Shown here: positions 18,620-63,009 of the stretch, piece by piece
Layout of the letters: each line of letters starts with the position of its first letter
How positions within the stretch are numbered: position 1 is the stretch's first letter
DNA from: Octopus vulgaris
Taxonomy: Eukaryota
Direction of reading: 5' to 3'
NCBI GenBank assembly: GCA_951406725.2
Contig: OX597830.1
Coordinates: 24,490,001-24,554,000, forward strand
DNA: 64,000 nucleotides
Made by a program: the position numbers and the translations under genes
Notes under the pieces: generated by a model
Databases searched by the model: none
What the model was told of the DNA's origin: nothing
Seen by the model: the letters and a program-made list of their open reading frames with translations, nothing else

Positions 18620-21600
18620 GAACTAATTCCAAGTTTATCAAACTTGAAAGGAAAGTGTGTACTGTGATCGTTGTATTGACTATGGTTTGGGAAAATATAT
18701 TTGAATAAAATAACTAATTCCAAGCTTATCAAGCTTGAAAGGAAGGAGTGTAGTGTGATCGTTGTAATGCCCTCGATGTCTGAAAATATATTATTATAAA
18801 TGTTGTCCTTTTTTAAAAGACAACAAAGCTAAAGCATGCAGTGAAAAGCTGCTTGGCACAGATTCCACATAAAATCAGTTTTAACATTCTAGCTCACTTC
18901 TGTTTGCAACAGTGCTTGAAACCAAGGAGTGTAGTATGATCGTTGTAATGTCCTCGATGTCTGAAAATATATTATAATAAATGTTATCCTTTTTAAAAGA
19001 CAACAAAGCTAAAGCATGCAGAGTAAAGCTCCTTGGCAGAGATTCCCCATAAACTCAGTTTTAACATTCTAGCTCACTTCTGTTTGCAACAGTGCTTGAT
19101 AGCTAGGAGTGTAGTATGATCGTTCTAATGCACTCGATGTCTGAAAATATATTAGAATAAATGTTGTCCTTTTTAAAAGACAACACAAAGCATGCAGAGT
19201 AAAGCTGCTTTGTGCAGATTCCCTATAAACTTTGTCCTCACATTCTAGCTCACTTCTGTTTACAACATTGCTTGGAAGGAAGGAGTGGTGTGTGATCATT
19301 ATAATGCCCTCGATGTCTGAAAATATATTAGAATAAATGTTGTCCTTTTTAAAAGATAACAAAACTAAAGCATGCAGAGTAAAGCTGCTTTGTGCAGATT
19401 CCCTTTAAACTCTGTTCTAATATTCTAGCTCACTTCTGTTTACAACAGTGCTTGGAAGGAAGGAGTGTGTGTGATCATTATAATGTCCTCGATGTCTGAA
19501 AATATATTAGAATAAATGTTGTCCTTTTTAAAAGACAACAAAACTAAAGCATGCAGAGTAAAGCTGCTTGGTACAGATTCCCTATAAACTCTGTTCTAAC
19601 ATTCTAGCTCACTTCTATTTACAACAGTGCTTGGAAGGAAGGAGTGTTGTGTGATCATTATAATGCCCTCGATGTCTGAAAATATATTAGAATAAATGTT
19701 GTCCTTTTTAAAAGACAACAAAACTAAAGCATGCAGAGTAAGCGCTTGGTGATTCCCTTTAAACTCTGTTCTAGCTCACTTCTGTTTACAAAGTGTTGGA
19801 AGCTGCTTGTTGTCCTTTTAAAAGACAACAAAACTAAAGCACAGATTCCCTATAAACTCACTTCTGTTCAACAGTGCTTGGAAGAAGGAGTGTAGTATGA
19901 TCTATTCTTTTAGCAACAAAACTAAAGCATGCACTGCTTGGTACAGATTCCCTATAAACTCTGTTTACAACAGTGCTTGGAAGGAAGGAGTGTAGTATGA
20001 TCGTTGTAATGTCCTCGATGTCTGAAAATATATTAGAATAAATGTTGTCCTTTTTAAAAGACAACAAAACTAAAGCATGCAGAGTAAAGCTGCTTGGCAC
20101 AGATTCCCTATAAACTCTGTTCTCACATTCTAGCTCACTTCTGTTTACAACAGTGCTTGGAAGGAAGGAGTGTAGTATGATCGTTGTAATGTCCTCGATG
20201 TCTGAAAATATATTAGAATAAATGTTGTCCTTTTTAAAAGACAACAAAACTAAAGGATGCAGAGTAAAGCTGCTTGGCACAGATTCCCTATAAACTCTGT
20301 TCCCACATTCTAGCTCACTTCTGTTTACAACAGTGCTTGGAAGGAAGGAGTGTTGTGTGATCATTATAATGCCCTCGATGTCTGAAAATATATTAGAATA
20401 AATGTTGTCCTTTTTAAAAGACAACAAAACTAAAGCATGCAGAGTAAAGCTGCTTGGCACAGATTCCCTATAAACTCTGTTCTAACATTCTAGCTCACTT
20501 CTATTTACAACAGTGCTTGGAAGGAAGGAGTGGTGTGTGATCATTATAATGCCCTCGATGTCTGAAAATATATTAGAATAAATGTTGTCCTTTTTAAAAG
20601 ACAACAAAACTAAAGGATGCAGAGTAAATCTCCTTGGCACAGATTCCTTATAAACTCTGTTCTCACATTCTAGCTCACTTCTGTTTACAACAGTGCTTGG
20701 AAGGAAGGAGTGTTGTGTGATCATTATAATGCCCTCGATGTCTGAAAATATATTATTATAAATGTTGTCCTTTTTAAACAACAAAACTAAAGGATGCAAA
20801 GTAAAGCTGCTTGGTACAGATTCCCTATAAACTCTGTACTAACATTCTAGATCACTTCTATTTACAACAGTGCTTGGAAGGAAGGAGTGTTGTGTGATCA
20901 TTATAATGCCCTCGATGTCTGAAAATATATTAGAATAAATGTTGTCCTTTTTAAATGACAACAAAACTAAAGGATGCAGAGTAAAGCTGCTTGGCACAGA
21001 TTCCCTATAAACTCTGTTCCCACATTCTAGCTCACTTCTGTTTACAACAGTGCTTGGAAGGAAGGAGTGTTGTGTGATCATTATAATGCCCTCGATGTCT
21101 GAAAATATATTAGAATAAATGTTGTCCTTTTTAAAAGACAACAAAACTAAAGGATGCAGAGTAAATCTCCTTGGCACAGATTCCTTATAAACTCTGTTCT
21201 CACATTCTAGCTCACTTCTGTTTACAACAGTGCTTGGAAGGAAGGAGTGTTGTGTGATCTGATTATAATGCCCTCGATGTCTGAAAATATATTATTATAA
21301 ATGTTGTCCTTTTTAAACAACAACAAAACTAAAGGATGCAAAGTAAAGCTGCTTGGTACAGATTCCCTATAAACTCTGTTCTAACATTCTAGCTCACTTC
21401 TATTTACAACAGTGCTTGGAAGGAAGGAGTGTTGTGTGATCATTATAATGCCCTCGATGTCTGAAAAAATATTAGAATAAATGTTGTCCTTTTTAAATGA
21501 CAAGAAAACTAAAGGATGCAGAGTAAAGCTGCTTGGCACAGATTCCCTATAAACTCTGTTCCCACATTCTAGCTCACTTCTGTTTACAACAGTGCTTGGA

Positions 21601-22920
21601 AGGAAGGAGTGTTGTGTGATCATTATAATGCCCTCGATGTCTGAAAATATATTAGAATAAATGTTGTCCTTTTTAAAAGACAACAAAACTAAAGCATGCA
21701 GAGTAAAGCTGCTTGGTACAGATTCCCTTTAAACTCTGTTCTAATATTCTAGCTCACTTCTGTTTACAACAGTGCTTGGAAGGAAGGAGTGTAGTATGAT
21801 CGTTGTAATGTCCTCGTTGTCTGAAAATATATTAGAATAAATGTTGTCCTTTTTAAAAGACAACAAAACTAAAGCATGCAGAGTAAAGCTGCTTGGTACA
21901 GATTCCCTATAAACTCTGTTCTAACATTCTAGCGCACTTCTATTTACAACAGTGCTTGGAAGGAAGGAGTGTTGTGTGATCATTATAATGCCCTCGATGT
22001 CTGAAAATATATTAGAATAAATGTTGTCCTTTTTAAAAAACAAAACTAAAGGATGCAGAGTAAAGCTGCTTGGCACAGATTCCCTATAAACTCTGTTCTC
22101 ACATTCTAGCTCACTTCTATTTACAACAGTGCTTGGAAGGAAGGAGTGGTGTGTGATCATTATAATGCCCTCGATGTCTGAAAATATATTAGAATAAATG
22201 TTGTCCTTATTAAAAGACAACAAAACTAAAGCATGCATAGTAAATCTCCTTGGTACAGATTCCCTTTAAACTCTGTTCTCACATTCTAGCTCACTTCTGT
22301 TTACAACAGTGCTTGGAAGGAAGGAGTGTACTATGATCGTTGTAATGCCCTCGATGTCTGAAAATATATTAGAATAAATGTTGTCCTTATTAAAAGACAA
22401 CAAAGCTAAAGGATGCAGAGTAAATCTCCTTGGCACAGATTCCCTATAAACTCTGTTCTCACATTCTAGCTCACTTCTGTTTACAACAGTGCTTGGAAGG
22501 AAGGAGTGTTGTGTGATCATTATAATGCCCTCGATGTCTGAAAATATATTAGAATAAATGTTGTCCTTTTTAAAAGACAACAAAACTAAAGCATGCAGAG
22601 TAAAGCTGCTTGGTACAGATTCCCTATAAACTCTGTTCCCACATTCTAGCTCACTTCTGTTTACAACAGTGCTTGGAAGGAAGGAGTGTTGTGTGATCAT
22701 TATAATGCCCTCGATGTCTGAAAATATATTAGAATAAACGTTGTCCTTTTTAAAAGACAACAAAACTAAAGCATGCAGAGTAAATCTCCTTGGTACAGAT
22801 TCCCTTTCAACTCTGTTCTAATATTCTAGCTCACTTCTGTTTACAACAATGCTTGAAAGGAAGGAGTGTAGTATGATCGTTATAATGTCCTCGGTGTCTG
22901 AAAATATATTAGAATAAATT
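18620..22920. repeat. 180-bp tandem satellite, about 23 units, mariner-derived
   Basis: Unit AAAACTAAAGCATGCAGAGTAAAGCTGCTTGGCACAGATTCCCTATAAACTCTG...GTCTGAAAATATATTAGAATAAATGTTGTCC recurs every ~180 bp, with a scrambled patch at about 19740-19980. Confidence 0.97.
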
Positions 22921-34466: not shown

Positions 34467-35960
34467 CTGCTTTTGAAAGTATGTAAGAGTCCTAGCAAGA
34501 CCACTGCAATTCCTCTTTCAGAGCTTCCTTGCAACTGGCAAACTTCCAAGAAAACTGAAGGAAGGTAAAATATGCCCTATTCATAAAGGAGGTAGCAGAG
34601 TGGAGGCCAAGAACTACAGACCTATCTCTCTGACCTCGCACATCAGCAAGGTCATGGAAGGAATAGTCAGAAGGAAACTAATCACCTTCCTGGAAGAAAA
34701 TGACTTACTGCCTGACACCCAACATGGTTTCCGACCAGGAAGAAGCTGCTTAACTCAGCTCCTACAACACTATGACCGGGTGCTGAAACGACTGCTCAAC
34801 CACTCAAATGTGGAAGTCATATATCTTGACTTTGCAAAGGCCTTTGATAAAGTCGATCATGGAATGATATGTCACAAACTGCGTGATCTTGGCATAGTTG
34901 GAAAATTGGGAGAATGGCTTCATGACTTTCTGAAGGATAGAAGTCAGGTGGTAGTAGCCAATGGGGCCACTTCCAGTAACATGCAAATAGTGAGCGGTGT
35001 TCTGCAAGGAACTGTCTTGGGACCACTACTGTTCATAATGGCCCTCTCAGACATGCCCTCAGCCACACAGCCACGATCACAAGTTATGCAGATGATGCAA
35101 AAGTTTCACAGGCAATACAGAACCCTGAAGACACTAAGCAGGAGGGATTGCAATCCCAGAGGCACAATCAGTGCGAGACCTGGGTATTTACATGAGTGAT
35201 GATGCAATCTTTCATGTGCATGTTGCTAAATTGGCAATGAAATGTAGGTGGCTGACCGGATGGATTCTTAGAACCTTTAGAACAAGAGACCAGGAAACCA
35301 TGATGGTCCTCTGGAGGACACTTGTCCTAAGCCACTTTGACTATTGCTCTCAGCTACGGTCACCATCCAGTGTCAAGTTAATCACAGAACTTGAGGCAAT
35401 CCAACGAAGCTACACGAAGAAGATAGCCTCTGTGCAGCATATAAGCTATTGGGAAAGACTCAAGAGATTGAGACTCTATTCCTTAGAGCGTAAGCGAGAA
35501 AGATATGCCATAATATACATCTGGAAGATCCTAGAAGGACTTCTCCCAAACTTTGGCATCAAGAGTTACACAAATGCCAGAACTGGGCACCACTGCATAG
35601 TGCCAAGGACTCCAAATTTGCCATCAAGATGTAGGACGAGATACTGTGATAGCCTGGGCTTCCGAGGCCCACAGCTCTTCAATATCCTCCCGAAGAACCT
35701 AAGAGACCTGCATGGGGTGGATGCAGATGTCTTTAAAATAAAACTGGATCTCTTCTTATCAGGTGACCCAGATGAACCAACTTCATGGCAGGGGGTGCAG
35801 ATGAGGGCAGCTGCATCGAACTCTTTCATGCACCAAATGGCAATTGCTAAAAAGCATTTCGTGAAGTAAAATCATGTAGCAACACCAAATGGCGGTGCCC
35901 CAGCATGGCCACAGCTTGTGAGCTGAAACTAGATAAAAATTTAAAAAATAAAAAAATAAA
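34467..35960 (+). mobile_element. CR1-like LINE ORF2 RT and 3' end, frameshifted with an internal deletion
   Basis: ORFs 34600..35199 (NYRPISLTS, QHGFRPGRSC, YLDFAKAFDKVDH, QGTVLGPLLF) and 35171..35869; YADD in a shifted frame near 35085; A-rich tail. Confidence 0.95.
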
Positions 35961-39674: not shown

Positions 39675-42390
39675 TCTGATCTTAGTTGGACTGTCTGTGA
39701 GGGAGCCATCCTTTTGGAGGAGGGGGTCCTATCTTGTAGTGCACTGAGACTGTTTCTTTCGCATAATGAAAGAAGGCCTTTGGGTTTGATTTAATGTTTT
39801 TTATAACACAGGCTTCTTTGTCTGCTTTTTCCTTCACATAGGATTGTTGCAGCCTTTTTTCGATCTCCATCAGTGTTGTTTTTAGGCGGGACGTTTCACT
39901 ACTTTTGGGATGTTGGTTGAGACGATTTGCAACTTTCGTCCGTTGTCTCATGAAGATCTTCCTGTCTCTTGGAATCTTGCTCCTATTTGTTTTGGCCTTG
40001 TGCTCTGGAACATATTTCTGGCATACGGCTTGCACAGAAGACATGAAACATTCTAGTTTCATGTCAATGTCTGGTGTGGAGAGACATTCCAGCCAGTCCT
40101 CTCTGAGCATCTCTTTTTGGATCAATTTCCAGTCTTTGTGGAAGTTCAGATTGGAGAGATTTCGGGTGCTTCCTTTAGGCTGTATGTCTCTGGTTACTTT
40201 TGGCCCAAACATAGACAGCTCTATAATGTTATGATCCGAAACTGATGTCGGTGTCACTTTCACATCATGAATGAGGTCCATATTGTTCATGAAGCAGAGA
40301 TCCAGAATGTTATTCGCCCTAGTTGGTTTGAGTACAACTTGCTCCATGAATAAGGCATTGGTGAGGTTGAGCAGGGACTCCACGTGTACTTGCTTGCAAT
40401 GATTCATTCCTGAGAGTATGTGACCTTCGGGCCATTTGACGTTGGGGAAGCTGAAATCACCCATAAGAAATATGGTCACGTGGTGTTCCAGATTCATGAG
40501 GATTTTTAATTCTTGTGAGGCAAGTTTGAAGATTGCCTATGTGATTTGGGGCATCCGGTGGGCAATATGTATTGCATATGACTATATTATGTCTTATGTA
40601 TACAATTAGTGTCACATACCGAATTTGAGTATGTCATTAAGACCTGGGGTGTGAGGTCATCTCGGATGTATACAGCAACTCCACCATGGCCCCTTTCCCT
40701 TCTGTCTGTTTGCAGTATGGCATAGTTCGATATGTGTACTTCTGCGTCCTCTATATCAGGGTTGAGGTGAGTTTCCACAAGTGCTATGCATAGGGCTTGA
40801 TTGCATGCAGTAAGATCTCTCAGGAAAGAAATTTTGTTTCTATTTTGATGCAATGGGCCCCCAATATTTAGTAAAAGTATTGGGGTGACGGCTGTGCAGA
40901 CGTTAGGGGAGGCAATCCTGTGTCTGTTGACTGTGGTGGTCTTGCATAGTGGTGAGCTGGGTTCCTTCTCTGTGCTTGGTGTAGCCAGGTTAGTTGCTGG
41001 ACAATTCTTTGCGCCATGCATAAAAAAGACTCTTGCTCAGCTGCTGCGTTGTGCAGAACATCTGAGGAGCGCACTTCCTGGGAGACATTTCTTGTGTTCC
41101 CTCGATAAAGTTTTTCTCTTTGAGTCCCCTGAAGTTCTGGCGGGGTGTCGGGTGGGCGAACCGGCAGTTTTTGCCATCCTCACCATGCCAATATTTGCCC
41201 TGCAGGTAGAACTTACAGGTTCTTCGGTACCTTCCAGATTTCTTCTTTCCTGAAGTGTACTCGGTGGCATTGGATCCTCCATGGGGTTCTCTGCTATTTG
41301 TGTGGTGGGTTGGGGTTTCAGCTTTGGTTGTTTTGCCTTTTTCCTCCTTATTTTTGTTTTCGGTCCTTTTTTCTTCTGTTTTTCTAATTTTTCAATTCTT
41401 CCTAGGACCACTGGTACAGGGGTCTTCCGGTTTCTGCTCCCTTGGCTCCCCTATCCTTCACTACCTGGTCGTTCACTGGGGTAGGTGATCCATTTTCCTG
41501 AGGAACCCCTGGATCACATAGACTTCCAGCTTCCTTCTCTTTTTCGTCCTCTTCATCCTCATCAGCTTTGCCACAATAATTTTCAATTATGTTATCCAGT
41601 GTTTTGATGTGTGGTCTTATAAGCATGTAAGACCGGATAAACTCACTTTTCTTCCGCTCTATCTGGTCAATGGTTCTATGAAATCCATTGTTTTTTAGTG
41701 CAGCCGTGATGATGTTGTTCGGTGGATTGCCACTAGCAATCATCCATGCTCTCAGCAGAAGATTTAACTCTTTCTTTTCCCACTTTGGTGCCATCTTCGT
41801 TTTGAGGTCCAGAGGGGGAGTAGAGGCTAGAGAGGTAATGATGGATAGAGAGGTAGAGACGAAGAAACACAGAGGGGGGGAAATAGGGAAAGAGAGAGGG
41901 AGATAGGAAGGAAAGAGAGGTGCTATGAAATAAATCACGAGGGTGATAGGAGGAAAGCAAGGGGGCGTGGTGTGTTAAGATAGAGGAAGGTAGGGGAGGG
42001 GGAGAGGAGGGAAATAGGAGAGACAGTGAAGGAGAAGAGGGAAGAGAAAGAGGCAGAATGAAGGAGAGGAGGGAAAGAGAAACAGGGAGAGGATAGCAAG
42101 AGACAGTGAAAGAGACAGGATGAAGGATTTGAGGGAGAGACGGAGTGAGAAGAATGGGCGAATGAGAAGTATATGAGAGGGTGAGGTGACGAGAGGAGAG
42201 GTAGATGTGAGATGGAAAGGAAAGAGAAATGAGAGAGGAGGGGAGATGAGAAAAAGAGTAAGATATGTAAGAGAGAGGGAAAGGGTAAGCGTAAAGAGAG
42301 ATAAAGGAAGGGAGAAAGGAGCTGGAAGTGGGGGAATATATGTAAGGGAGGAGAGAGGAGGTAGAAGAAAGTGAGGAAATGAAGGAATTA
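39675..42390 (-). mobile_element. CR1-like LINE 5' half: 5' UTR, ORF1 and APE endonuclease
   Basis: APE motifs LLNIGG, ALVETHL, DR..RGHGGVAVY, GDFSFP, PTRANNILDL, SDHNII (ORFs 40587..41021 and 39682..40497). ORF1 ATG at 41794. The CT-rich 5' UTR appears as a GA tract on the + strand. Confidence 0.9.
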
Positions 42391-42429
42391 TTTAATTCTA
42401 AACTAATTACAGGAAAATAAACATATGAA

Positions 42430-42925
42430 AGCGAAACGGAAACTGAAAGAAAGTTCTTCTAAGAATGTAAACAAAGATGGTGTCGTAAATCGTAACTGAG
42501 ATGTTAGCTTATATTAAAGGAAAATAAAAATTAATAAACAAACAATTGCAACCGATACTTATCTTGAAAGGTACAGTCCAAACCTTTGTGCTTGTACGAA
42601 GAAGTTTTCTTTCACAACAGAAAAGAAAATTCTTTTTCCTTCTAACATTTGGCTGGAGATAAATTAAAGACTTGCCACCACATGCTTTTTCGGCGAAGAC
42701 TCTAGCATGCGTAACTAACTTTACTGTATTATATTTGGCTTCAAGCGAAATATATTACGTTTTTATTTAATATATTTTTAATGTATTTTAGTAGACTTTA
42801 TGAGTTAACAAGTTCTACGTTTTGTTACTTTTAGTAGATTATTTCGTCGATTTATGCAAACCTTTTTGTTTTTTTACAGAGCAAAAGCAAACACGTCTTT
42901 CCTCTACGAAAACCGGAAGTAATAT
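42430..42925. promoter_or_regulatory. Second promoter-like CpG-richer island
   Basis: AAGATGGTGTCG (YY1-like) at 42474 and ETS site CCGGAAGT at 42913-42920; CpG drops sharply after about 43 kb. Confidence 0.4.
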
Positions 42926-48660: not shown

Positions 48661-49829
48661 GATTAATTGTAAATACCAATTTCTACAAATGATAAATGAA
48701 CGCCTTAGATTTTACAAGAGCCTTTGTTGATTAATTGTAGCAGACTTTTGGTTTAGAGTAATGGTTTGGATACTTATCTAATACTAATACATCTATATAT
48801 GTTTTAAATGGGTGCAGGCATGGAGGTGAGGTTAATAAGCAGAGGGATTTGAATCCAATGTAACTTTACGGAACCTTCCTTTCCTGAAAATAGGTTCTAC
48901 TTGCCCTTTACAATTAGTTATCATAGCTTTGGGTCAATCAAAATCCTAATTGAAATTTTTAGTGTGTAAGTCGTGAACGGAACCCTTCCTGTTTAGTGAT
49001 AAATAATGTTGCCCAGTTTAATTCCATCACTTAGTTCTTGGTTACCTTTAACATTTTTTTTTTTTTTTTTTTTTTTTTATTATAAGTATTCAGGCTAGGT
49101 TTCATTCTGGAGGGGTTTCCCTATCTTCGTCTTTGATGCTCTGAAAAGTTCACAAGTGCCATTCCTCCCCTAAACCATTAAACAAAATTCCACATTGGAT
49201 GATTTGATCATCTGGCATTTATTCATGAAAATCTGATGTAAAGATATTGCTGAAATATTTACATCAATTGAACAAATCTTAAGCTCACTCCTTTATACAC
49301 ACTTTTTACCTTTTCCCTTTGTTTCTTCAGCTTCCTTCAGTCACATGTCTAACATGTCTCTTTATCTCACACCTTTACCTTAATTTTTCCCTTTTATCTT
49401 TTCACAAGTCAATATCTCTCCCTCTCTGTTAAAGAGCAATAACCCTGAAGCAATAACTCTCTTCAAATCTGAACTATGAATTAGTCCTCAAAAGAAATCA
49501 GTTTTCTCAATTTTAGATTTTACCCTAACAGCTAAAAACACTGGATAATTTATATAAACCTAATAGCAGAAATTTGAACATGTTCATAAGTTTTTTGTTG
49601 ACTGCAACCATTGGACTGTATGCTTACGCAATTGTTTGTAGTTGCACACAGTGAATGATGACACTCCTAGATAAGTACTGATGTAATAATGTTTGTGGAT
49701 TGGGTGATCTTAGCATATTAGAACTTAACACCAAAACATTGTCGGGTCTACCTTTACCTGGGGACATTCTAATTCAAGTATTTAGACTAGGATTCATGTG
49801 AGGATAGCTTTTCATTTCAGATACTTTTA

Positions 49830-50160
49830 TACTTTTGTTTCATTCAATTAACTGTGGTCATGCTGGAGCACTCTTTAGTCAAACAAATTGACCCCAGAAC
49901 TTATTTTTTTGTAAGCCTAGTACTTATTCTATCAGTTTCTTTGAACTCTTAAGTTACGAGGATGTAAACACACCAGCATCGGTTGTCAAGCAATGTTAGA
50001 GGACACACACACGACAGGCTTCTTTCAGTTTCCATCTCCCAAATCCACCCACAAGACTATGGTTGCCCCGAGGCTATAGCAGAAGACACTTGCCCAAGGT
50101 GCCATGCAGTGGGACCGAACCCAGAATTATGTGGTTGGTAAGTAAGCTACTTACCACCTT
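49830..50160 (-). mobile_element. tRNA-derived SINE, type B
   Basis: Reverse complement of 26515-26870-type sequence (ACACTTGCCCAAGGTGCCATGCAGTGGGACCGAACCC). Confidence 0.85.
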
Positions 50161-50811
50161 GTTTATATCCTGGACACAGACACACAAAAAAAAACTATGC
50201 ATTTTTCTAACTGTATAATTGAGGAAATATGTCCATGGCATGTATATGCTCAAGTACTTGTCATCTCTCACATAACTGAATTATCTAAATCTAATAATTC
50301 ATTAGCCAGTGGGGAAAAAAAAAAGTTGTCATTAAACCTCAAAACTATAATTGAAGTAAAGTGCACATTGCATGTTGAAGCACCTGTTGTCTCTCATGGA
50401 ACTGATTTGTTAGCATTGATTTATGTTAGATACTTATTGTATACCTTACATTTAAGGAAATGCCACTGTTCTGTGTGTGTGTGTGTGTGTGACTAAGGTC
50501 TTCCTGAAGTGCCACATTCAATGACATTGCTACCAAAAGCAGATTCTCTGAAGAAATGTCAAGATTGTTTTAGTAGTTTTATGGGCATGCACCGTAATAG
50601 TGCATCACTGCATCCACCATTTATTGGTGATTCCCCACTCGTAGAAGATGACACCTTTTGTACCACATAGGCAACAACCTACTAAACCATGGGTGGTTCT
50701 TGCTAGTACAGATTTTACAAGGTCGGTGTGCAAATCCTACCTCCACTCTTAAGTGTCATTTGCAATATACAGAGGAAGCATTGGGTCTATTTTCAGATGT
50801 GCTGGTCCTCA

Positions 50812-50897
50812 CTGTGGTTTCGCTAGACAGATAGGGGACAGTGGAAATCTCGTTGATCCATTCATGCACGTCACTAATTAGATGAGGCATTTGGCTA
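50812..50897 (-). pseudogene. 28S rRNA fragment starting at the R2 target site
   Basis: Minus strand TAGCCAAATGCCTC--ATCTAATTAGTGACGTGCATGAATGGATCAACGAGATTTCCACTGTCCCCTATCT..CTAGCGAAACCACAG matches the conserved 28S sequence downstream of AAGG|TAGC. Confidence 0.92.
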
Positions 50898-51760
50898 CTG
50901 TGACTATTGACTTGGTCAATACTTCCCTTTGATTATAGTGGGTGGTCCCACTAATGCCCTCATTAGCAACATGCATGAACTGCAGGCACTAAAGTCTAAT
51001 CCTGGAGTGACTCCCACTGCCTCACCAAGGGAACATGTATACCACCTATTGTCAAATCTGGTGCTTTTGTCTATATTTATTATTAATAGCCCTAATCATT
51101 ATACAGGGATCCTGTGGGCAGGATCTCCATGCTGAGAGCTAATCTTTCAGCATATTGTATGTAACATAGCCGTCCTGCTGAATAGTCATCAGAATGACTT
51201 GTCCTTAATGCTCACGGCATCTAGCACTGCACTCACAGGCCAGCACCAGGCACCACAGGCACCAATTGGGAGTCCATGCACTTCTACCAGCTGATCAAAC
51301 TCTTGCAACAGTAATGGTATGAGCAGCTGATACTTGCGCACTTTCTTGAGATGCCTCTTTTAAGGCATCTCCTTGCTCCAACGTTGACTACTACCTTCTA
51401 TTAGGTCACGTTGACTACTACTCAGGACGACTAAATACTATCAACCTAGAGCCTCATTAATGTAAGAAGACTCCACACTGATTATAATCAGCAGCCTCTT
51501 TCACTATCAGGCTACAGATGCTATGTCTAATAAGTCATGGCCCTTAAGAACGCCACAAACTCCACTGATGTGAGAGATCATCTCTGCCCCTACTCTATGC
51601 CTTGGACACATGGAGTGCCCTTAGCCACCACGTGTCAAGGTCTCTCAGGTGGGAAATACATTGGAGCGCATCTTGAGAAGACTCAAGAAGCACTTCTCTG
51701 TAATCCCATCTGGTCTTCTGATCCAATTATTGCCAATTGTATCCCCATGAAACACTGCCT
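50898..51760 (-). mobile_element. R2 non-LTR retrotransposon, 5'-truncated (zinc knuckle, RLE endonuclease, 3' UTR)
   Basis: Frameshift-corrected minus-strand translation FHGDTIGNNWIRRP..LKMRSNVFPT*ETLTRG..CPR..AEMISHISGVC..IRH..VVVNVT..KKVRKYQ..VHGLPIGACGAW; the 3' end abuts the 28S target. Confidence 0.88.
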
Positions 51761-54700
51761 CATGATAGATTTAAAATCAAGTAAAAGGCAGCCGTAAGCC
51801 CTTCAGAGTTGGACTTAATCCACCTTTTATTCCCTGAAGAATAACTTACATAGACTTAGGTGTTTCCATGTTGGATAATATTTACTACAATCAAAATACA
51901 CCAAAAGGATCCAGTCAGCAGTCACCTTCAGTGCATTGTTCCATTGCAAGTTTGTCAGATGAAGGGTTCAGTTGATAGTCTGCTGTCAGTTATTCTGTCA
52001 CCAGAGTCCTTCTACTTAAAAGCTTGCCTGACAAGTCTATTTATCAGTGGTCTTATGACATGCTGCACCTAACTTCATTGGTGCCTGTAATTGGTGGACA
52101 ATAAGCTATGATCTTCTCTTTCACCTCCACTCGATGTGTAGTTCTTGGAGGCATTTGCTGCCAATCAACAATGTGCAGTTTTTCTTGACCAGTTTTCAGG
52201 TGCAGTATTTCTCAGCTACAGAGTGGAAAGAACCTTGTTATAGAAATGTGTTTGGAGTATTTTTCAAGCAAGTTTCTTGTTCTATATTTTAACTAAGCTC
52301 ACTGAATGCACCTGATGCTATTCTCATTCTGCAATTGACTTGTTTTCCAGGTTTTCTTTGCAGCTAATAAAGCTCCCATGATTGGTTTAAGATGTCTACC
52401 ACTTTTGTTTCCTACTGGTTGATGCTTCTGTGAGAGTGGAATGTTTCTTAGTCATGTTTCAGGTCTTTGTGCCTTTGTTGAAAACCTCAAAAAGTTTTAT
52501 TTCCTACTGGTTGAATTTGTGACAGTGGAGTATTTTTCCCTGTCAACATGTTTCTGATCTTCTTGGTGCCTGTGTTGAAGCCAATGCTTGCTGAAGTGCT
52601 GAAATCACTGAGCACTATCTGGAGGCCTAGTGTGTGTTCTGCTAATGCAGTCGTGTCATTTGCAAAATCCAGGTCCACCATTTTTTTTTTTTTTTTTTTT
52701 TTTGCCAGCCACCAAATCCATTAACCTAGAATTGCTTTCCTCTGGATGCAATACAAAGGTGATCAGCAATAAGTCCCCCCCCCATCAGATACTATGAACA
52801 TTTTCAAGCCAGTCCCACTGTCCATCTTCTGTTCTTATACAGCAATTTTAATCGACATAGGTTTGCTGTTCTTAGTCTCTACCACATCACTTGTGAATGT
52901 TGTCTCCAGCTCAAAAGCAAAAATCTCCATCCACACTTTGCCAGAAGTCTTTGTACATGCCAACTCTGACACAGTACCCAGTTGAGTGTCCCTGCATAAG
53001 TTCACGGACATATGTCATGCATAATGTCCCCATGGGATTATATGAATAAAAGCACAGACGGGGTGATCTACTCAACAAAACAGGGCCAGTGAATTTTAGC
53101 TGATTTTGTCTGGCTGATGGGTAAGACTTATCCCTTTAGTAACTTATTTGACATATGGTAGGTTTAAAAAGTATTAATAGTTATGCACTGAAGTTGAGTG
53201 GATGTGCTGTTAGGTAACTGAATGTTAGTCCCTTATGATGGGCCAACAGCAGAGCCATAGAGCAGACCAGATTCTACTCATAACAGTGTTTAATTTTAGG
53301 TCATGATTAATTTTGTGTGTGCCATGTCATCTTCACTCCTCAAATTTGATGGCTCAATAAGCAGGACTTCTATAGAGAACCCGTCACATTCATCTCTATT
53401 ACATCCATCTTTTTACTACTCAAACACTATGTATAATCGCATTTTCCCTTCCACTAAGATCACTACAGTTAAAACATTCAGTTGAATCCACTCCAGTCAG
53501 TTGTTGGTACTTTTACATCCTTTCATGCATGCTTTTTACTGGAGACACTACTTCATGTATTCAGACTAGGATTCATCTGAGGGTTGCCCTTCATAGTATC
53601 ATGTTTAAAAACATCATGACAATGGCCCTTCTTCATGCCTTAACATGTGAAAAATGAAAAAAAAGGGAAAACTGCATAATTTAAGTAAAGTGCATATTGC
53701 ACTGATATATTAGCATTATTATTGTTATGCATTAATTGTATATGTTGCAGTTTTGCAGAAAATCCCCTTGCTCTGTTTCTCTAATATCTCCCAGAAGTCT
53801 CACATCAAATGTTTCCAAAAGCATACTTCTCTACGAAGTATTATCAAAATTGGTTTCACAAGAACTCCAGCATAATTTGCTGGAAGACCACAAACCACTA
53901 TCTCTATATAATACTTCACGATAGTTTTAAAAACAAGAAAAAGGCAATTGCAAGCACTTCAGCACTAGGCTTAATCTACATTTAATTTCCTGAAGAACAA
54001 CTTACGTAGACTTGGGTGCTTTCAGCCTGGGTAATGCCTACTACAGTCAAAATACTCGAAGGTCCAGTCAGGAGCCACTTTCAATGCATTGGTCCATTGC
54101 ATGTTTATTAGATGAAGGTTTTGGATGATTGCCAGTTTGAAATAATCTTGGATTGTCACCAAAGGTTTCTACTTAAAATCTTTCCTGACAAGTCTGTTCA
54201 TCAGTGGTCTTATGATACGGCCCAGCCAACTTCATCAGTGCCTGTAATTGGTGGACAGTAGGCTATGGTCTACTCTTAAACCTCCACTTGATGTCTAGTA
54301 TTTTCTGGAAGTATTTGCTGTCAACAATGTCCAATTTCTTTTCTTGGCTGGTTTTCAGGTGCTGTACTTTTCAGCTATAGTGGAAAGAACATTGTTATAG
54401 AAGTGTTTGGCGTATTTTTCAAGCAAGTTTCTTACTCCAGAGTCTTACTCTAAAGTCACTAAATGGATCTGATACCATTCCCACTCTGCAATTGGTTTTT
54501 TCCAGGTCTTCATTGCAGCTAATAAGCTCTCATGATTGGTTTAAGATGTCTTCTACTTTTATTTCCTTCTGGTTGATGTTTCTTTGTTAGTGTAGTGTTC
54601 CCAGTCAACATGTTTTTGGTCTTCTCAGTGTCTGTGTTGAGGCCTATAGGTGAAGTGCTGACATCACTGAGCAGTATCTGGAGGACCAGTTTGTATTCTA

Positions 54701-56492
54701 TTAATGCAGCGAGGTCATCTGCAAAATCAGTCTTAAATTTTTTTTCCCTGTTAACCGCTGAATCCCTTAACCTACAGTTGCTTTTTTTCTGGATGCAATA
54801 CAAAGGGGATCAGCTATAAGTACCCCCCTCCCGCCGTCAGATGCAGCATAGGTTTGTTGTTCTTAGTGTATACCACATCACTTGTGAATGTTGTCTCCAG
54901 CTCAATAGCAAAAATCTCCCAGACTTTGAAAGATTTTGCCAACTCTGATACAATACACAGTTGCACTGACAAGGTGATCTGTTCAACAAAATGGGGTTGG
55001 TGTATTTTACCTGTCTTTGTCTACTTTTTATACTTACTATATGGTTAAGTATCTCCCAAATAAGTCACTATATGGTTAAGTATCTTTTTATACTTACTAT
55101 ATGGTTAAGTATATCCCAAAGGCTATGCACAGAAGTTGTGTAGTGACTGAATGTTGGTCTTTTATGGTGGGCCAACAACAGAGCCATAGAGCAGAATGGA
55201 ATCGTTTCAGGTCATGTGACTATTGTGATCCTTTTGAAATTTTGTTTTTGTATGTGTGCCAAGCCATCCTCGCTCATCGAACCTGATGGTTGAATAAGCC
55301 AGACTTCCATAGAGACCCTTTCAGATTTGTCTTTTACATAAGCACTATAATTGCATATTCCCTTCCATTAAGATCACCACTGTTGAAACCTTCAGTTGAA
55401 TCAACTCCAGTCAGTTGTTGGTATTTTTATGTCCATGCATGCTTTTTTCTGTGAATACTGTTCATGTATTCAGACTAGGATCCATCTGAGGGTAACTCTT
55501 CCTTGTAAGAATAGCTTACATAGATATAGGTGCTATCATGTTGGGTAATGCATACTACAGTCAGTACTCCAAGATCCAGTTGTCAGCCACTTTCAGTACA
55601 TTGTTTCATTGCAAGAATATCAGATGAGGTCCTGGTTGATTGTCTGTTCATCTTGAACTGTCACCAGAGGGTTCTACTTAAAGGCTTACTTGACAAGTCT
55701 GCTCATCAGTGGTCTTACGACATGCCCCAGCCATCTTCATCAGTGCCTGCAACTGGGGGAGAGCAAATTTTGATCTGCTCTTTGACCCCCACTTGACAGC
55801 TAGTATTTCCTGGAAGCATTCGTTGTCAATCAACAATGTTCAGTTTTCAGGTGCTGTTTTTCTCAGCTTATCTCACCATTATGATGTTCTTCATGTCAGA
55901 TTTTCAAGGTAGAGAACCTGTTACTTAGCAGTTCTCAAATTTTGTTTGAGGCTCACTCCTTGAATCTACTGATGTGAAATAACTTTACTGTGAATGCTTT
56001 TATGAGTGACTCTTGATGCTTGGACCAGTCTTCAGCATTAAAACTCATAGCAGTATAGTTGAAGTAAAGTGCACATCTCCTGTATATATTCTCTCTTTAT
56101 TTACATGAAAATGACTTATATTGAGAGGTAATTGATTTGCATTCATGCAACCAATAACAGCAGTGAGTTTGTATGTACACATCAGGTTGTCTTCACTCGT
56201 TAAACCTGATGGTTCAATAAGCTGGACTTCTGTAGTAAACTCTTAACGTTAGCTGTCTATATTGCATCCATTTCTATACTAAACATATTGTATAATCACA
56301 TTCCATTCCACTAAGATCACCACTACAGACATTCAGTTGAATCAACTCCAGTCAGTTGTTGGTACATATACGTCCATGCATGCCTTTTGCTGTGGACACA
56401 ATGCTCCGTTTATTCAGGTAAGGATTCATCTGAGGGTAACTCTTTCTTGTATTACATGTTTAAAAACATCATGGCAATGGCCCTTCTTCATG

Positions 56493-57185
56493 GTGTGGGT
56501 TAGGCTGAGGGTTGGGGTATGTGGGTAGGCAGAGGGTGGGGTATGTGGGAGAGGGTGTGAGAGATGGGATGGGGTGGGCTTATGGGAGAGGGTTGATGAA
56601 GGGGCAAGGGGAAGGTGGTATGTAGGAAGAATAGGGGTGAAGAGAAGTAGGAGCAAGAGAGGGGAGGTGGGTGGGAGGAAGTAGGAGGGAGGGGAAGAGG
56701 TTAGATGAAGAGAGGAGTTGAGCCCAGATAGCATAAAGGAGCGAAGTGAGAAGATTAATCCCTGTTCACGGCACAAATGGGAGTCAGGATGGCCTCTATG
56801 CAAGGACAATCCGAACACGGACAGGTGTTGCAAAGAGTGACTGGTACAGCAGAAATGGTGTGTGACCGGGGTGCCATTGCCGAGGCGGATGTCTTGGAGG
56901 TGTTCCACGAACCGGTCAGCCAAGCGGCGTCCCATTTGTCCGATGTACAGAGAATGGCAGAGAGCAGGAGATGCAATAGATGATATTGGTAGAGGTGCAG
57001 GTGAAGGAGTCGGTGATGCGATAGGGTCGATGATGGGTGCCGGTGAGGAGGGTGGTGTTGGAGAGGTAAGGGCAAGTGCGGCAGCATGGGCAGGAGCAGG
57101 GGAACTATCCAGGTTGGGAGGTAGGGTTGGGGAAGAAGCTGTGGACCAAGAGGTCTCGTAGGTTGTGGGCTCGTTTGAAGGGCAA
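56493..57185 (-). mobile_element. Penelope-like GIY-YIG C-terminal fragment with pyrimidine-rich 3' region
   Basis: ORF 56426..56935 MGRRLADRFVEHLQDIR..THHF..EQGLIFSL..GLN; inserted into one array unit. Confidence 0.85.
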
Positions 57186-60100
57186 TCACAAGCTCTCCAA
57201 AGTGAGGCTTAGACCCACATTTATTCCCTGAAAAATAACTTGTGTTGGGAAATGCATATTGCAGTCAACGAACTCTGAAGATCCAGTCAGTGGCAAATCT
57301 ACAGTGCATTGTTCCATTGTAAGTTTATCAGATGGTCTTGGTTGATTATCTGACATCAGATCCTCTTTGGCTGTCCCAAGAGGGTTCTCCTTGACAAGTC
57401 TGTTCATCAGTGGTCTTATGACATGGCCCAGCTAACACTGTGCTTGTAGTTATAGTAGATCCTGCTCTTTGATCTTCGTATTGCTGATAGACATTCCACT
57501 TGATGTCTGATATTTCCTGGAGGTATTTGCTGTCAATCAACGAAGTCCAATTACTTTTCTTGGCTGATTTTCAGTTGCTGTATTTCTCAGTTATCGAGTG
57601 GAAAGCACATGGCTGTAGAACTAAATTTGGTTTATATTTTTAGAAGTTTGCTTTCGATTTTAACTAAGCTCTCTGAATGCACCTGATGCTATTCTCACTC
57701 TGCAATTGACTTGTTTTCCAGGTTTTCTTTGCAGCTAATAAAGCTCCCATGATTGGTTTAAGATGTCTACCACTTTTGTTTCCTACTGGTTGATGCTTCT
57801 GTGAGAGTGGAATGTTTCTTAGTCATGTTTCAGGTCTTTGTGCCTGTGTTGAAAACCTCAAAAAGTTAAAACAAAACTGTATAAATGAAGTGCTCATTAC
57901 ATGTAAACGCTTCTTGTCTCTTAAAGAAATGATTTATTAGCATTGTTATGCATTCATTGTATATGTTGAATTTATGCAGAAAATGCCACTCTCCTGCTTG
58001 TCTATGATCTCCCAGAAGTCCCATAGCAAATGACATTGCTGCCAAAAGCATCCTTCTCTATGAAAGAATATCAAAATTGGTTTCACAAGAACTCCAACAT
58101 AATTTGCAGGGGTGCCCACATAACACTCACTGAATTTTTCACAATAGCTTTAAAAGCATAAAAGCAAACACAAGCTCTTCAGAGTCAGGCTTAATTCACA
58201 TTTATTTTCCTGAAGAATAATTTATGTAGACTGAGGTGCTCTCATGCTGGGTAATGCTTCCTACAAAGTACTCCCAGTCAGCAACCACATACAGTGCATT
58301 GTTCCATTGCGTGTTTATCAGATGAAGGTCATGGTTGATTGTCTGGTTTGAGATAATCTTGGGCTGTCACCACAGGGTTCTGGTTAAAGGCTTACTTGAC
58401 AAGTCTCTTCATCAATGCTCTTACGACATGACCCAACCATCTTCATCGGTGCCTGCAATTGGGGGACAGTAGGCTATGGTCTGCTCTTTGACCTCCACTT
58501 GATGTAAAAATTTCCTGAAGGAATTTGCTCTCAATCAACAATGTGCAGTTTCTTTTCTTGGCTGGTTTTAAGGTACTGTACTTCTCAGCTACAGAGTGAA
58601 AAGAACCTTGTTATAGAAATAAGTTTGGAGTATTTTTCAAGCAAGTTTCTTGTTTTAGATCTTAACTAAACCTACTGAATGCATCTGATGCAATCCCACT
58701 CTGCAATTGGCTGTTTTCCAAGTTGGTCTTCATTGCAACCGATAAAGCTCCCATGATTGGTTTAAGATGTCTACCCCTTTTAGTTCCTTCTGGTTGATGT
58801 TTCTGTGTTACTGTGTTTTCTAACCAACGTTTTTGGTCTTCAGGGCTTCCTTGGCAAGTCTTTTAATCAATGGTCTTATTACATGGCCCAACCAACACAA
58901 TCAGTGCTTGTAGTTGGTGGACCGTAGTCTCTCTGCTCTTTGACCTCATTGCTGATAGATATTCCACTTGATGTCTAGTATTTCCTGAAGATATTTTCTG
59001 TCAATCAACAATGTCCGGTTTCTTTTCTTGGCTGGCTTTCTGGTGTCCTACTTATCAGCTATCGAGTGTAAAGCACATGGCTATAGAACTACGGTACATT
59101 TGGAGTATATTTTAGTTCCTTGTTCTAGATCTTAACTAAGCCCACTGAATGCATCTGATGCCATTCCCACTTTGCAGTTGGCTTTTTTTCCGGGTCTTCA
59201 TTGCATTTAATGAAATTCCAATGATTAGATTAAGATGTCTACCTCTTTTAGTTCCTTCTGGTTGTTTCTGTGAGACTGTAATCTGTTTCCCAGTCAACAT
59301 GTTTTTGGTCTTGGTGCTCGTACTGAGGCCCATACATGCTGGTACTGACATCACTGAGCAGTATCTGGAGGCACCGTGTGTATTCTGCTAATGCAGTGAT
59401 GTCATCTGCAAAATCAGTTTACCAATTTTTTTTTTCCTGTCAACTACTGAATCCCTTAACCTAGAGTTGATTTCCTCTGGATGCAATACAAAGGGATCAG
59501 CAATAAGAACCCCTGTCAGATGCAACATCATCCCAGTCGCAGTCCATCTTCTGTTCTTGTACAGCAATTTGAATCGACATAGGTTTGTTGTTCTTGGTCT
59601 ATGCCACATCAATTGTGAATGTTCTCTAGGTTAAGAGCAAAAATCTCCCTCCAGACTTTGCAAGAAGACTTTGTACATGCCAACTCTGATACAATACACA
59701 GTTGCATATCCCTGCATAAGTTCAGACATATTATGCAGAATGTCCCCATGGGGTTATAGAAAGTACAGACAGGGTGATCTGTTCAACAAAATGGGACCTG
59801 TGAGTTTTATCTATGGCTGATGCTAATCCATATAGTGACTTATTTGACGTATGGTAGGTATAAAACGTATTAAAGGCTATGCACAGAAGTCGAGTATGTG
59901 CTGTTTAGTGATTGAATGTTGGTATCTTATGGTTCAATAAGCAGGACTTCCATAGAGAACCCTTCACATTTGTCTTTTACATCCATCTCTTTACTACACA
60001 TACACTATGTATAATTATATATTCCCTTCCACTAAGATCACCTAAGTCTATGTAAGTTGACTAATGCATACTACGGTCAAAGTACTGCAAGATCCAATCA

Positions 60101-60669
60101 GTAGCCATCTTCTGTGCATTGCTCCACTGTAAGTTTATCAGCTGAAGGTCTTGGTCAGTTAGGGTTGGATCATCTTGGGCTGTCACCAGAGGGTTCTTCT
60201 TAGACTTGGTTGGCAAGCCTGTTCATCAGTGGCCTTATAACCTGCCCTAGACAACAGTCAGTGCCTGTAGTTCGTGGACAATAGATTGTTTTGCTCTTTG
60301 GACTCCTTGTTGGTGATGGACATTCCACTTGATGTCTAATATTTCCTGGATGCATCTGCTATCATCAATGTCCAGTTATTTTTCTTGACTGATTTTCAGG
60401 TACTGTATTTCTCAGCTACAGTGGAAAGCACTTTATAGAGCTGCATTTGGAGTACATTTTAGTTTCTTGTTCTAGATTTTAACCATTCACTGAATGCATC
60501 TGATGCCATTCCCACTGTGCAATCGAGTTTTTTCTTCCGGATCTTCTTGGCAGCTAATAATGCTCCCATAATTGGTTTAAGATGTCCACCTCTTTTATTT
60601 CCTTCTGGTTGATGTTTCTGTGGTAGTGGAGTCTTTCCCCCAGTTAATGTTTTAGGTCTTCTGGCATAG

Positions 60670-61530
60670 CTATGAGAATAAGATTAGGTTGGGTAAAGTT
60701 CAGAGCTCCTACCTCTGCTGACAACAAAGGCCCTCTCTCAGAGTGAAAAGCAGATTCTTTGATGCCTGTGTGTGAACAGCTATGCTGCATGGCAGTGAAA
60801 CATGGGCTACAACAACCAAGGACATGTATAGGTTTGATAGGAATGAAGCTAGTATGCTAGAGAAAAGATATGCATAAGTGGAAACAGATGTGTGCAAGAG
60901 AGGTTGTGTTGGCATGATCACATGCATATGGACAAGAACAGCTGTGTCAAGAGGTGTTGATCTCTAGAAGGAACTTGTGGTAGAGATAGACCCTGGTAGG
61001 TATTGGATTAGGTGGTAAAGCATGATCTTCAAACTTTGAGCCTCACAGAGATAATGACTAGTGACCAAGACCTTTGGTGATACGCTGTGCTTGAGAAGAC
61101 CCATTGAGCCAAGTGCACCCATACTGGTGACAGGTAAAGAATCAACTTTTGAGTATTAGGCCTCACAAAGGCGAGGTGGCCGAGTACCATTTGAGCATTG
61201 AGCTGAATGGAGGTAGTGGTAGTTTCTTTCGAGTGTTGGGCTTCAGGGGCAATGACCAAGACTATTAAGCCAAGCAAAACCAGTCATGGCAGATATGAGT
61301 GTGCCACAAATTGTCACCCATGCTGGTGGCATATAAATGCACCTCGGTGTCATGCAAATGGTATGCAAAAGCACCCATTACACTCTTGGAGTGGTTGATG
61401 TTAGGAAGGGCATCTAGCTGTAGAAATCCATGGCAAATCAGACTGGAGTCTGGTGCAGCCTTCCTTCATGCCAGCCCAGTCAAACCGTCCAACTCATATC
61501 AGCATGGACAATAGACGTTAAATGATGGTG
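60670..61530 (+). mobile_element. RTE LINE 3' portion with tail
   Basis: Decayed W.KF.ELLPLLTTK.LSLRVK..DACV.TAMLHGSETW; ends GGACAATAGACGTTAAATGATG. Confidence 0.8.
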
Positions 61531-63009
61531 CTTATGCTGAGACCTATACCTGCTGAAGTGTTAACATCACTGAGCAGTATCTGGGATGGGGTGGGGGCGT
61601 TGTGTCTATTCGGATAATACAGTGATGTCATCTGCAAAATCCAGGTCTACCAATTTTTTTTTTTCCTGTCAACTACTGAATCCCTTAACCTACAGTTGCT
61701 TTCTTCTGGATGCAATACAAAGGGGATCAGCAATAAGTACCCCTATCAGATACTTGGAATAACTTCAAACCAGTCCCATTGTCTCGCTTCTGCTCTAATA
61801 CAACAATTCGAATTGGCATAAGTTTGCTCTTTTTCGCCTGTCACACCACTTGTGAATGTTGTCTCCAGCTCACGAGATAAATCTCTCTCCAGACTATTTT
61901 ACATCAATTTCTATACTACATATGCGCGCGCGCACACACACACACGGTGTAAAATCTTTGATGATCTTTTCCAACTCAACCAATTTTGTTGCTGTGGTTG
62001 CTTATAATTGGTACTTGTATACCTATGGATTTTTTTTTTGTTGAGAACACTCTGCTTTAAGTGGTCAGACCTGGATTCATCTGAACATAACTTTTCCTTG
62101 ATTCAGATGTTAGAAACATAGCAATGGTCCTTCTTTATGGCTTAACCTCTCCGCCCCACCCCCAGCACACACAAAAAAAAAAATTAGATATATACAGTTT
62201 GTGTAACGAGTCTCTTTTGGTGCTTAAACCATTGCACACAATGTTAAAACTCAAAGCAATGTAATTGTAGTAAAGTATACACATGAATATATTATAGTCT
62301 GTGCTGTCCCTTGAAATTGATTTTAAATATTTTAAACTTTGAAGTGATTGGCTTAGGAAGCAGAGAAGAATGCAAATAGTTATATTTTTTTCTCATTAAA
62401 ATTCTCAGTGCTAGATTTAGAGGAAGTTTTTGCATTTTGTAAACTCCTTTATATGAGCAACTCTAGCAGAAAATAATCAGTTTATCAATTTAATTTCTTC
62501 AAATGGGTTTTTCAAGATTTTATTCTTGCTATAATTTGTAAACTTTTCTATGCAAACTTCATGGTAGGTATCAAATCAACATTGTTGCATATCTTTTGAC
62601 TACGTTATTTTGTAGCTTCTTAGTATTTTTGTTTTTATATTTCATTAGGACTTTCCCTAAATAATCCCAGATCACTTAAAACAAGAAATCCATTCACGCT
62701 GCAGAATACAGTGCAGCTGTATCCTTGGCAGGCTCTCTACAGCAAAGCCATCAGCTAGAGTGGTATGTTTGAACAATGCTGACTTACCTATTAAAACAAA
62801 TGACCTCATAAAAGTGAGTGGGGTTATTGATACCAGTTATATTAACAAGGATTTGATCCTGGATCTTGCCAACTATGAAGTATTAGTCTTCCAAAATAAC
62901 TCTTAGCATGGGAAGTGGGGAAGCCTTTTGATCTGGCTGATCCCTGTTTACAACTAACCAGTGCTGGATAAGGTCATTTTGAACTTGATATATTTTTGCA
63001 TATTTTGTA

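Follow-up and report, generated by a model that had tools for sequence, protein, structure and literature searches.

The 64 000-nucleotide window (the whole stretch of Octopus vulgaris DNA that was analysed) contains a real and ordinary R2 fossil, a by-product of a known kind and not a new element, in which a 5'-truncated R2 3' end is joined at the R2 target site to a short piece of 28S rRNA outside the rDNA. On balance, we lean towards an origin as an ectopic copy of an R2–28S read-through RNA, reverse-transcribed at a nicked or broken site away from the rDNA. An R2 of a second octopus lineage would have resided in a 28S gene and been co-transcribed with the rRNA; the RNA would have continued past the end of the element into 28S, and copying would have started 91 nt into 28S and ended after 860 nt of R2, at the edge of a SINE piece that was already there, perhaps leaving a 5–6 bp duplication. 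Since the conserved 3' UTR module was part of the RNA, an R2 protein is the probable enzyme, although that of another LINE may have acted instead. On the minus strand the order is host unit, R2 3' end (860 nt), 28S from +1 to +91, SINE-like piece and host again, with the R2–28S piece occupying 946 bases from 51757 down to 50812. The features are as follows.

51763–53237, minus strand: LINE-like host unit, decayed and locally amplified, upstream part (sister units)
51758–51762, minus strand: candidate 5–6 bp target-site duplication, upstream copy (word match)
51147–51757, minus strand: R2 ORF remnant, 5'-truncated and frameshifted, with the zinc-knuckle and restriction-like endonuclease region (PDB matches; alignment to intact R2)
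50898–51146, minus strand: R2 3' UTR without poly(A) (alignment to the 3' UTRs of other copies)
50923–50951, minus strand: 3' UTR hairpin and GGGAA motif (motif matches; pair conservation)
50905–50921, minus strand: terminal hairpin TATTGAC-CAA-GTCAATA, with letters that differ among lineages, 7 nt before 28S (sequence)
50812–50897, minus strand: 28S rRNA, +1 to +91 from the R2 nick site (alignment to the genome's own 28S)
50807–50811, minus strand: candidate duplication, downstream copy, coinciding with the start of the SINE piece (word match)
50571–50811, minus strand: SINE-like high-copy repeat, 3' part, with a short ACT-type tail (genome matches)
50305–50570, minus strand: host unit, downstream part (sister units)

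The translation of 51758–51150, with X at stops, matched R2 proteins alone in the PDB (three sequences; best E value 1.1e-11), which rules out a non-R2 endonuclease clade for the remnant; a Pfam search of the same remnant gave no match. The R2 coding sequence is spread across three frames and shows 42% identity across 214 columns with residues 1065–1271 of the R2 ORF in the rDNA array (1276 aa; L064), so that the preliminary description was right to see an R2-type C-terminal remnant followed by its 3' UTR. The C-terminal zinc knuckle and restriction-like endonuclease are homologous to those of R2 proteins, in degenerate and frameshifted form. The RT domain is absent from the window copy through 5' truncation; relatives in its lineage align across RT, and L064 and L075 match RVT_1. 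By eye, L064 and L075 show three zinc fingers and a Myb-like motif, and their best PDB matches are vertebrate clade A proteins; this reading concerns those two copies and is not counted for the lineage of the window copy. An Rfam scan of six loci returned no ribozyme family, and the window copy has no 5' end.

The segment 50897–50812 aligns with the genome's own 28S, taken from the array and recognised as Rfam LSU_rRNA_eukarya, from +1 to +91 of the R2 site with three substitutions in about 85 letters and three small indels. All three substitutions are C to T, two of them at CpG. This alignment rules out a chance similarity to 28S and places the window 3' end exactly at the canonical R2 site, between AAGG and TAGC, as had been proposed. 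The 86 nt of 28S counted earlier are 86 window letters that stand for 91 nt of 28S, and Rfam gave no rRNA match to these 86 nt inside the window. The terminal hairpin is likewise present but does not end the R2, since seven more R2 bases precede TAGCC. The conserved feature of the 3' UTR is instead the hairpin at 50951–50923, which in 17 rows has five invariant pairs and two pairs changed on both sides. The motif formed by this hairpin and GGGAA has 33 exact genome matches, against none for a reversed control, and is common to all sampled R2 and short non-coding R2-like lineages; judged from its sequence, it is likely to be a protein-binding module. The clade A R2 3' UTR is described as a pseudoknot–hinge–stem (PMC12180492); for this fold, the first hairpin is supported in the octopus copies and pairing in the single 2-bp pseudoknot helix tried reached 59%. 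Folding of the window 3' end was no better than that of shuffles (z = -0.62).

Contigs of four independent runs carrying four organism labels (X2, X4, X8 and X11; 4/4 runs) bridge the R2/28S and 28S/SINE junctions with 3–13 differences, and contigs of X2 and X4 bridge the 5' junction. The insertion is therefore real and shared, and an assembly artefact is ruled out. The position outside rDNA described earlier also stands: the window lies on C17 and the rDNA array on C20, and no further rDNA was found in the 10 kb around the insertion. The copy has been dead since insertion and has no apparent function.

The host unit belongs to a local array (window 49750–62000) of a decayed LINE-like unit, the copies of which are 72–83% alike and almost confined to this locus. 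No RT family matched the host unit, which may carry an RTE-like RT motif. Elsewhere in the window, the ORF list indicates a tandem array of short repeat units at 19000–22800, and remnants of LINE reverse transcriptase, endonuclease and ORF1-like sequence were read by eye at 34477–35869 (plus strand) and 39682–42458 (minus strand). The preliminary description had placed the insert antisense within its locus; in fact it lies on the same strand as both the LINE-like host unit and the SINE. Comparison with the sister units, which that description had suggested, showed both host flanks to be collinear with the sisters at 53.7–62 kb of the window and also brought out what it had missed, namely that two sisters hold 55 and 59 bases that are missing here at the insertion. 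It had also missed the SINE-like piece, which lies between the 28S tail and the downstream host sequence. This piece has at least 41 genome matches (40 of 400 candidates scored) and departs from the majority base of 14 other copies at 42 of 229 columns; a tRNA-like head was seen by eye in other copies, and ARAGORN found none in 5/5.

Divergence is much greater in the SINE piece than in the 28S tail (42/229 versus 3/84; Fisher p = 0.0005), and the R2–28S piece was thus probably added later at the edge of an earlier SINE. The same comparison bears on a one-step chimera in which a LINE enzyme started on SINE RNA and switched template to R2–28S RNA. The three pieces do lie on one strand with the SINE tail as the 3' end, and human 28S/LINE-1 chimeras exist (10.1101/2025.02.02.635956). 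We nevertheless consider such a chimera improbable, given the divergence of the SINE piece, the candidate duplication that encloses R2–28S alone and the finding, by eye, that no other mapped copy has the same SINE piece after its tail.

The tail and the R2 part can also be compared. Changes outside CpG number 1/74 in the 28S tail against 45/446 in the R2 part (p = 0.013), the latter count including lineage divergence, and CpG decay does not differ (p = 0.29). The 28S tail looks younger than the R2 part, and the source of the window copy may have been an already ageing R2 moved in trans. The 5' junction lacks upstream 28S, and at the 28S/SINE junction one base is common to tail and target. A five-base word occurs at both ends of the R2–28S piece, a match that 3.5% of randomly paired window positions also give. 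The window copy has this 5–6 bp candidate only and not the 8–35 bp duplication of tailless retropseudogenes. The other mapped copies have no convincing duplication, save for L205, where the match is a microsatellite, and L199, with a possible four-base repeat.

R2 is already known from cephalopods: one R2 for Octopus vulgaris (R2-1_OVu) is among the six cephalopod R2s in Table S2 of PMC13188248, so the fossil is not the news of a cephalopod R2 lineage for which it was first taken. In the assembly, the rDNA array on C20 has seven units about 18.5 kb apart, six of them empty and one with an intact R2 (L064; 1276 aa, 4750 nt) that matches R2-1_OVu over the part displayed there and in its lengths. 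The full-length element that the preliminary description had recommended seeking in rDNA is therefore present and intact, but it is of another lineage. In a tree of 27 C-terminal regions, nine copies form the R2-1_OVu lineage and 18 a second lineage (bootstrap 100), with 55–58% nucleotide identity between the two in the C-terminal region. The window copy falls in the second lineage, the more decayed of the two, on one of its longest branches (0.13); it shares its target site and the 3' UTR motif with R2-1_OVu and the other listed cephalopod R2s, from which it differs in being a dead second-lineage copy outside rDNA. No intact ORF was seen in the second lineage, the longest open stretch being 665 codons. 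The second lineage was 28S-specific, because its copies in the C29 cluster and at L241 and L255 (C29, C9 and C3) follow upstream 28S that ends at -3 to -8; another of its copies (L070) has long downstream rDNA. The C29 cluster (L231–L238; 25.63–25.71 Mb) is a tandem cluster of about 12 units, each with 28S from -204 to -5 and the 5' half of a second-lineage R2, in which no R2 3' ends were found. Elements of about 1.8 kb that are non-coding, sit in the R2 site and carry the R2 3' motif occur in at least two subfamilies (L062, L063, L067, L068, L198, L202 and L203). On C18 (L069, L070, L093 and L094; 79.80–79.84 Mb), R2 and the short element are stacked head to tail, with some of the stacked elements in spacer-type copies of the target.

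The preliminary description presented the window copy as a singular fossil; dozens of similar strays exist. With the window locus as query, at least 47 genome matches were obtained (40 of 477 candidates scored). The 3' UTR profile gave 51 matches in the scanned loci, from which 48 ectopic 3' ends remained after one incomplete match, one at a locus edge and the array copy had been left out; this sample is not exhaustive, with at most 40 candidates scored per search, and its ends are not all independent, three sharing a duplicated flank and several lying in one tandem cluster on C18. Alignable 28S of 12–231 nt follows 18 of these R2-type ends and 978 nt follows one; ten run for at least 1.7 kb into rDNA or spacer, and 19 have no alignable 28S, some of these adjoining another element or a degenerate spacer copy of the target. 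Thus, 37 of the 48 have 231 nt of 28S or less. With tails from 12 to over 1700 nt, an element with a fixed 28S-derived 3' segment is ruled out. The R2 side is 164–4778 nt long in the 22 chainable copies among 24 mapped short-tail or tailless ones, some of these lengths stopping at internal breaks. This asymmetry, a long R2 side against a short 28S side, counts for the RNA origin.

The same census bears on whether a random rDNA segment with its R2 was moved and later trimmed by deletions. Dispersed rDNA is common (at least 33 non-array matches to a control 28S segment), and long rDNA pieces make up many of the young strays. Later deletions, however, would not be expected to shorten the 28S side preferentially, and the collinear flanks and rDNA-free surroundings of the window copy also speak against this origin, which is the least probable of those weighed here.

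A second DNA-level route, which we regard as unlikely, is that R2 cut its proper target, the cDNA joined the downstream rDNA while the 5' end stayed unjoined, and the piece was released and then taken up at a break elsewhere. Once the second nick is made, only protein is reported to bridge the ends, and host repair is needed (PMC12180492). L075 starts at an R2 5' end and runs through a whole rDNA unit to five bases before the next site, and L062 has a whole unit behind a short non-coding element, likewise ending just before the next R2 site. The long runs into spacer and these two whole units opened at the R2 site show that a DNA route operates in this genome. Whole units opened in this way are seen at L075, L146 and L239 (C5, 100.91–100.94 Mb) and at L062 and L240 (C29, 28.86–28.88 Mb), and the unit on C5 begins with an R2 whose frame of 1311 codons is intact. 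Fragments of 28S alone are also in keeping with such capture: at 12 loci they start at -8 to +33, and upstream fragments stop at the site. These starts need not be R2 cuts, because human 28S/LINE-1 chimeras have a preferred 28S start position without R2 (10.1101/2025.02.02.635956). The octopus H88 rRNA break was set aside as a cause of the fragment starts, as it is described in another helix (PMC13321053). For the window copy, the DNA route requires the rDNA to have broken again 91 nt downstream, and it would not predict the marked excess of very short tails.

Outside the array, the R2 site is a breakpoint and the intact target is scarce. Allowing two mismatches, the 23-mer upstream of the site has 41 copies (seven in the array, 34 outside) and that downstream has 42 (seven and 35), against nine for the 23-mer across the site (six in the array and three outside, all three with two mismatches). 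These three cover only -11 to +30, -21 to +17 and -15 to +7. By contrast, for a control 28S segment (101-nt query; 40 of 53 candidates scored), 30 of 33 non-array matches cover the central part, the comparison resting on this one control position. A degenerate spacer-type target copy extends from -90 to +107 at 72%. Target remnants (+60 to +107 and -42 to -7) also lie in the rDNA spacer about 2.1–2.2 kb downstream of the R2 site (L082), with a longer degenerate form in L151.

The scarcity of intact targets (three, against 34 and 35) would also be expected if R2 had entered a short 28S fragment already present at the locus, with deletion of the upstream 28S at the 5' junction. L198 (-139 to +35) and L204 (-50 to +19), which with L092 keep upstream 28S, resemble such events, and a deletion of this sort would account for the 55–59 lost host bases. 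It is nonetheless highly improbable for the window copy: most copies would have to have lost all their upstream 28S, whereas 5' junctions embedded in rDNA mostly lose 0–9 bases.

One stray could be compared with its empty site. L197 (4353–6060) is a young copy in a high-copy repeat and is 98% like L061; its empty site is represented by a paralog in L159 (4856–4869) and by loose contig ends from X2, X8 and X11. The first five bases of 28S occupy, in register, the place of five target bases, and nothing else was lost; the next seven bases of the empty site match 28S at six or seven places. Judged from these sequences, the pattern is as expected if the 28S tail of an RNA pairs with an off-target primer, and the in-register replacement fits RNA priming better than capture of a DNA by-product. 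Such a site was recovered for one of the 15 copies tested; a genome search around L199 found none, and no orthologous empty site was seen for the window copy.

Eight dispersed loci (L222, L245, L246, L247, L250, L251, L252 and L253, on C1, C3, C4, C5, C7 and C11) consist of 28S from between -11 and 0 up to +35 followed by 45–130 nt of a shared R2-like 5' end with varying cut points. They look like copied RNA and may be retrocopies of a 5' end released by a ribozyme, from a third R2 lineage that duplicates 35 nt of its target; a parent element was not found.

L197 and these eight loci, together with the absence of upstream 28S at the window copy, count for the RNA origin, which has precedents in Drosophila R1 (PMC2718515) and in avian R2 off-target sites (PMC11371274). 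R2 co-transcription and ribozyme release have been described (PMC3774820), and longer 28S read-through raises the activity of R2Ol (PMC6795142). We hold our confidence in the RNA origin only a little above even, because the DNA route, the one-base 3' junction overlap, the younger-looking tail and the strays with upstream 28S (L198, L204 and L092) count against it, as do the short duplication and the single empty site.

Earlier publications already describe R2 located outside rDNA and next to 28S fragments (PMC2718515; PMC5035012). In Drosophila, non-28S insertions of R1 and extra-rDNA R2 have precise 3' junctions and some downstream 28S outside rDNA, and a duplicate of the target lies inside the spacer, as in octopus; the element there is R1 and not R2, and its copies outside 28S have up to 14 nt of downstream 28S, compared with 12–231 nt in octopus (PMC2718515). 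Avian remnants are similar in that dead R2 lies beside fragmented 28S or non-rRNA sequence; unlike the octopus set, the relevant parts of that account give neither mechanism nor tail lengths (PMC5035012). In the avian R2NS families specificity was lost (PMC5035012), whereas the octopus second lineage kept its 28S specificity, and at 29 of the 48 ectopic ends R2 gives way to alignable 28S starting at the R2 site, not to sequence unrelated to 28S. In PRINT, an avian clade A R2 primes at off-target sites that match the 3' tail of the RNA, as at L197; PRINT is engineered and uses short tails, whereas the octopus copies are natural and germline-fixed (PMC11371274). Tailless rRNA retropseudogenes and 28S/LINE-1 chimeras are also ectopic rRNA fragments without poly(A), but are L1-driven, have 8–35 bp duplications and lack an R2 part (PMC5322556; 10.1101/2025.02.02.635956). 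We found no published work on ectopic R2 tail lengths or ectopic target loss in a search of mainly open literature.

With regard to the preliminary proposal that a read-through RNA or an rDNA fragment was copied, the read-through RNA is the likeliest source, with the DNA-level routes and a SINE chimera as its rivals. The interesting part is the genome-wide pattern of strays, which is worth a census. A second octopus R2 lineage exists beside the listed R2-1_OVu, and very few intact R2 targets persist away from the rDNA array. The ectopic set bears on where native R2 transcripts end on their 3' side and on the germline misfiring of clade A R2 proteins, which are now used for gene insertion. Tentatively, octopus R2 might be both the main scatterer and the police of rDNA, with a break or an insertion at the R2 site of nearly every non-array 28S; the strays, from five-base overwrites to whole 18-kb units, could then serve as a natural, dated record of off-target priming and of read-through transcript ends.
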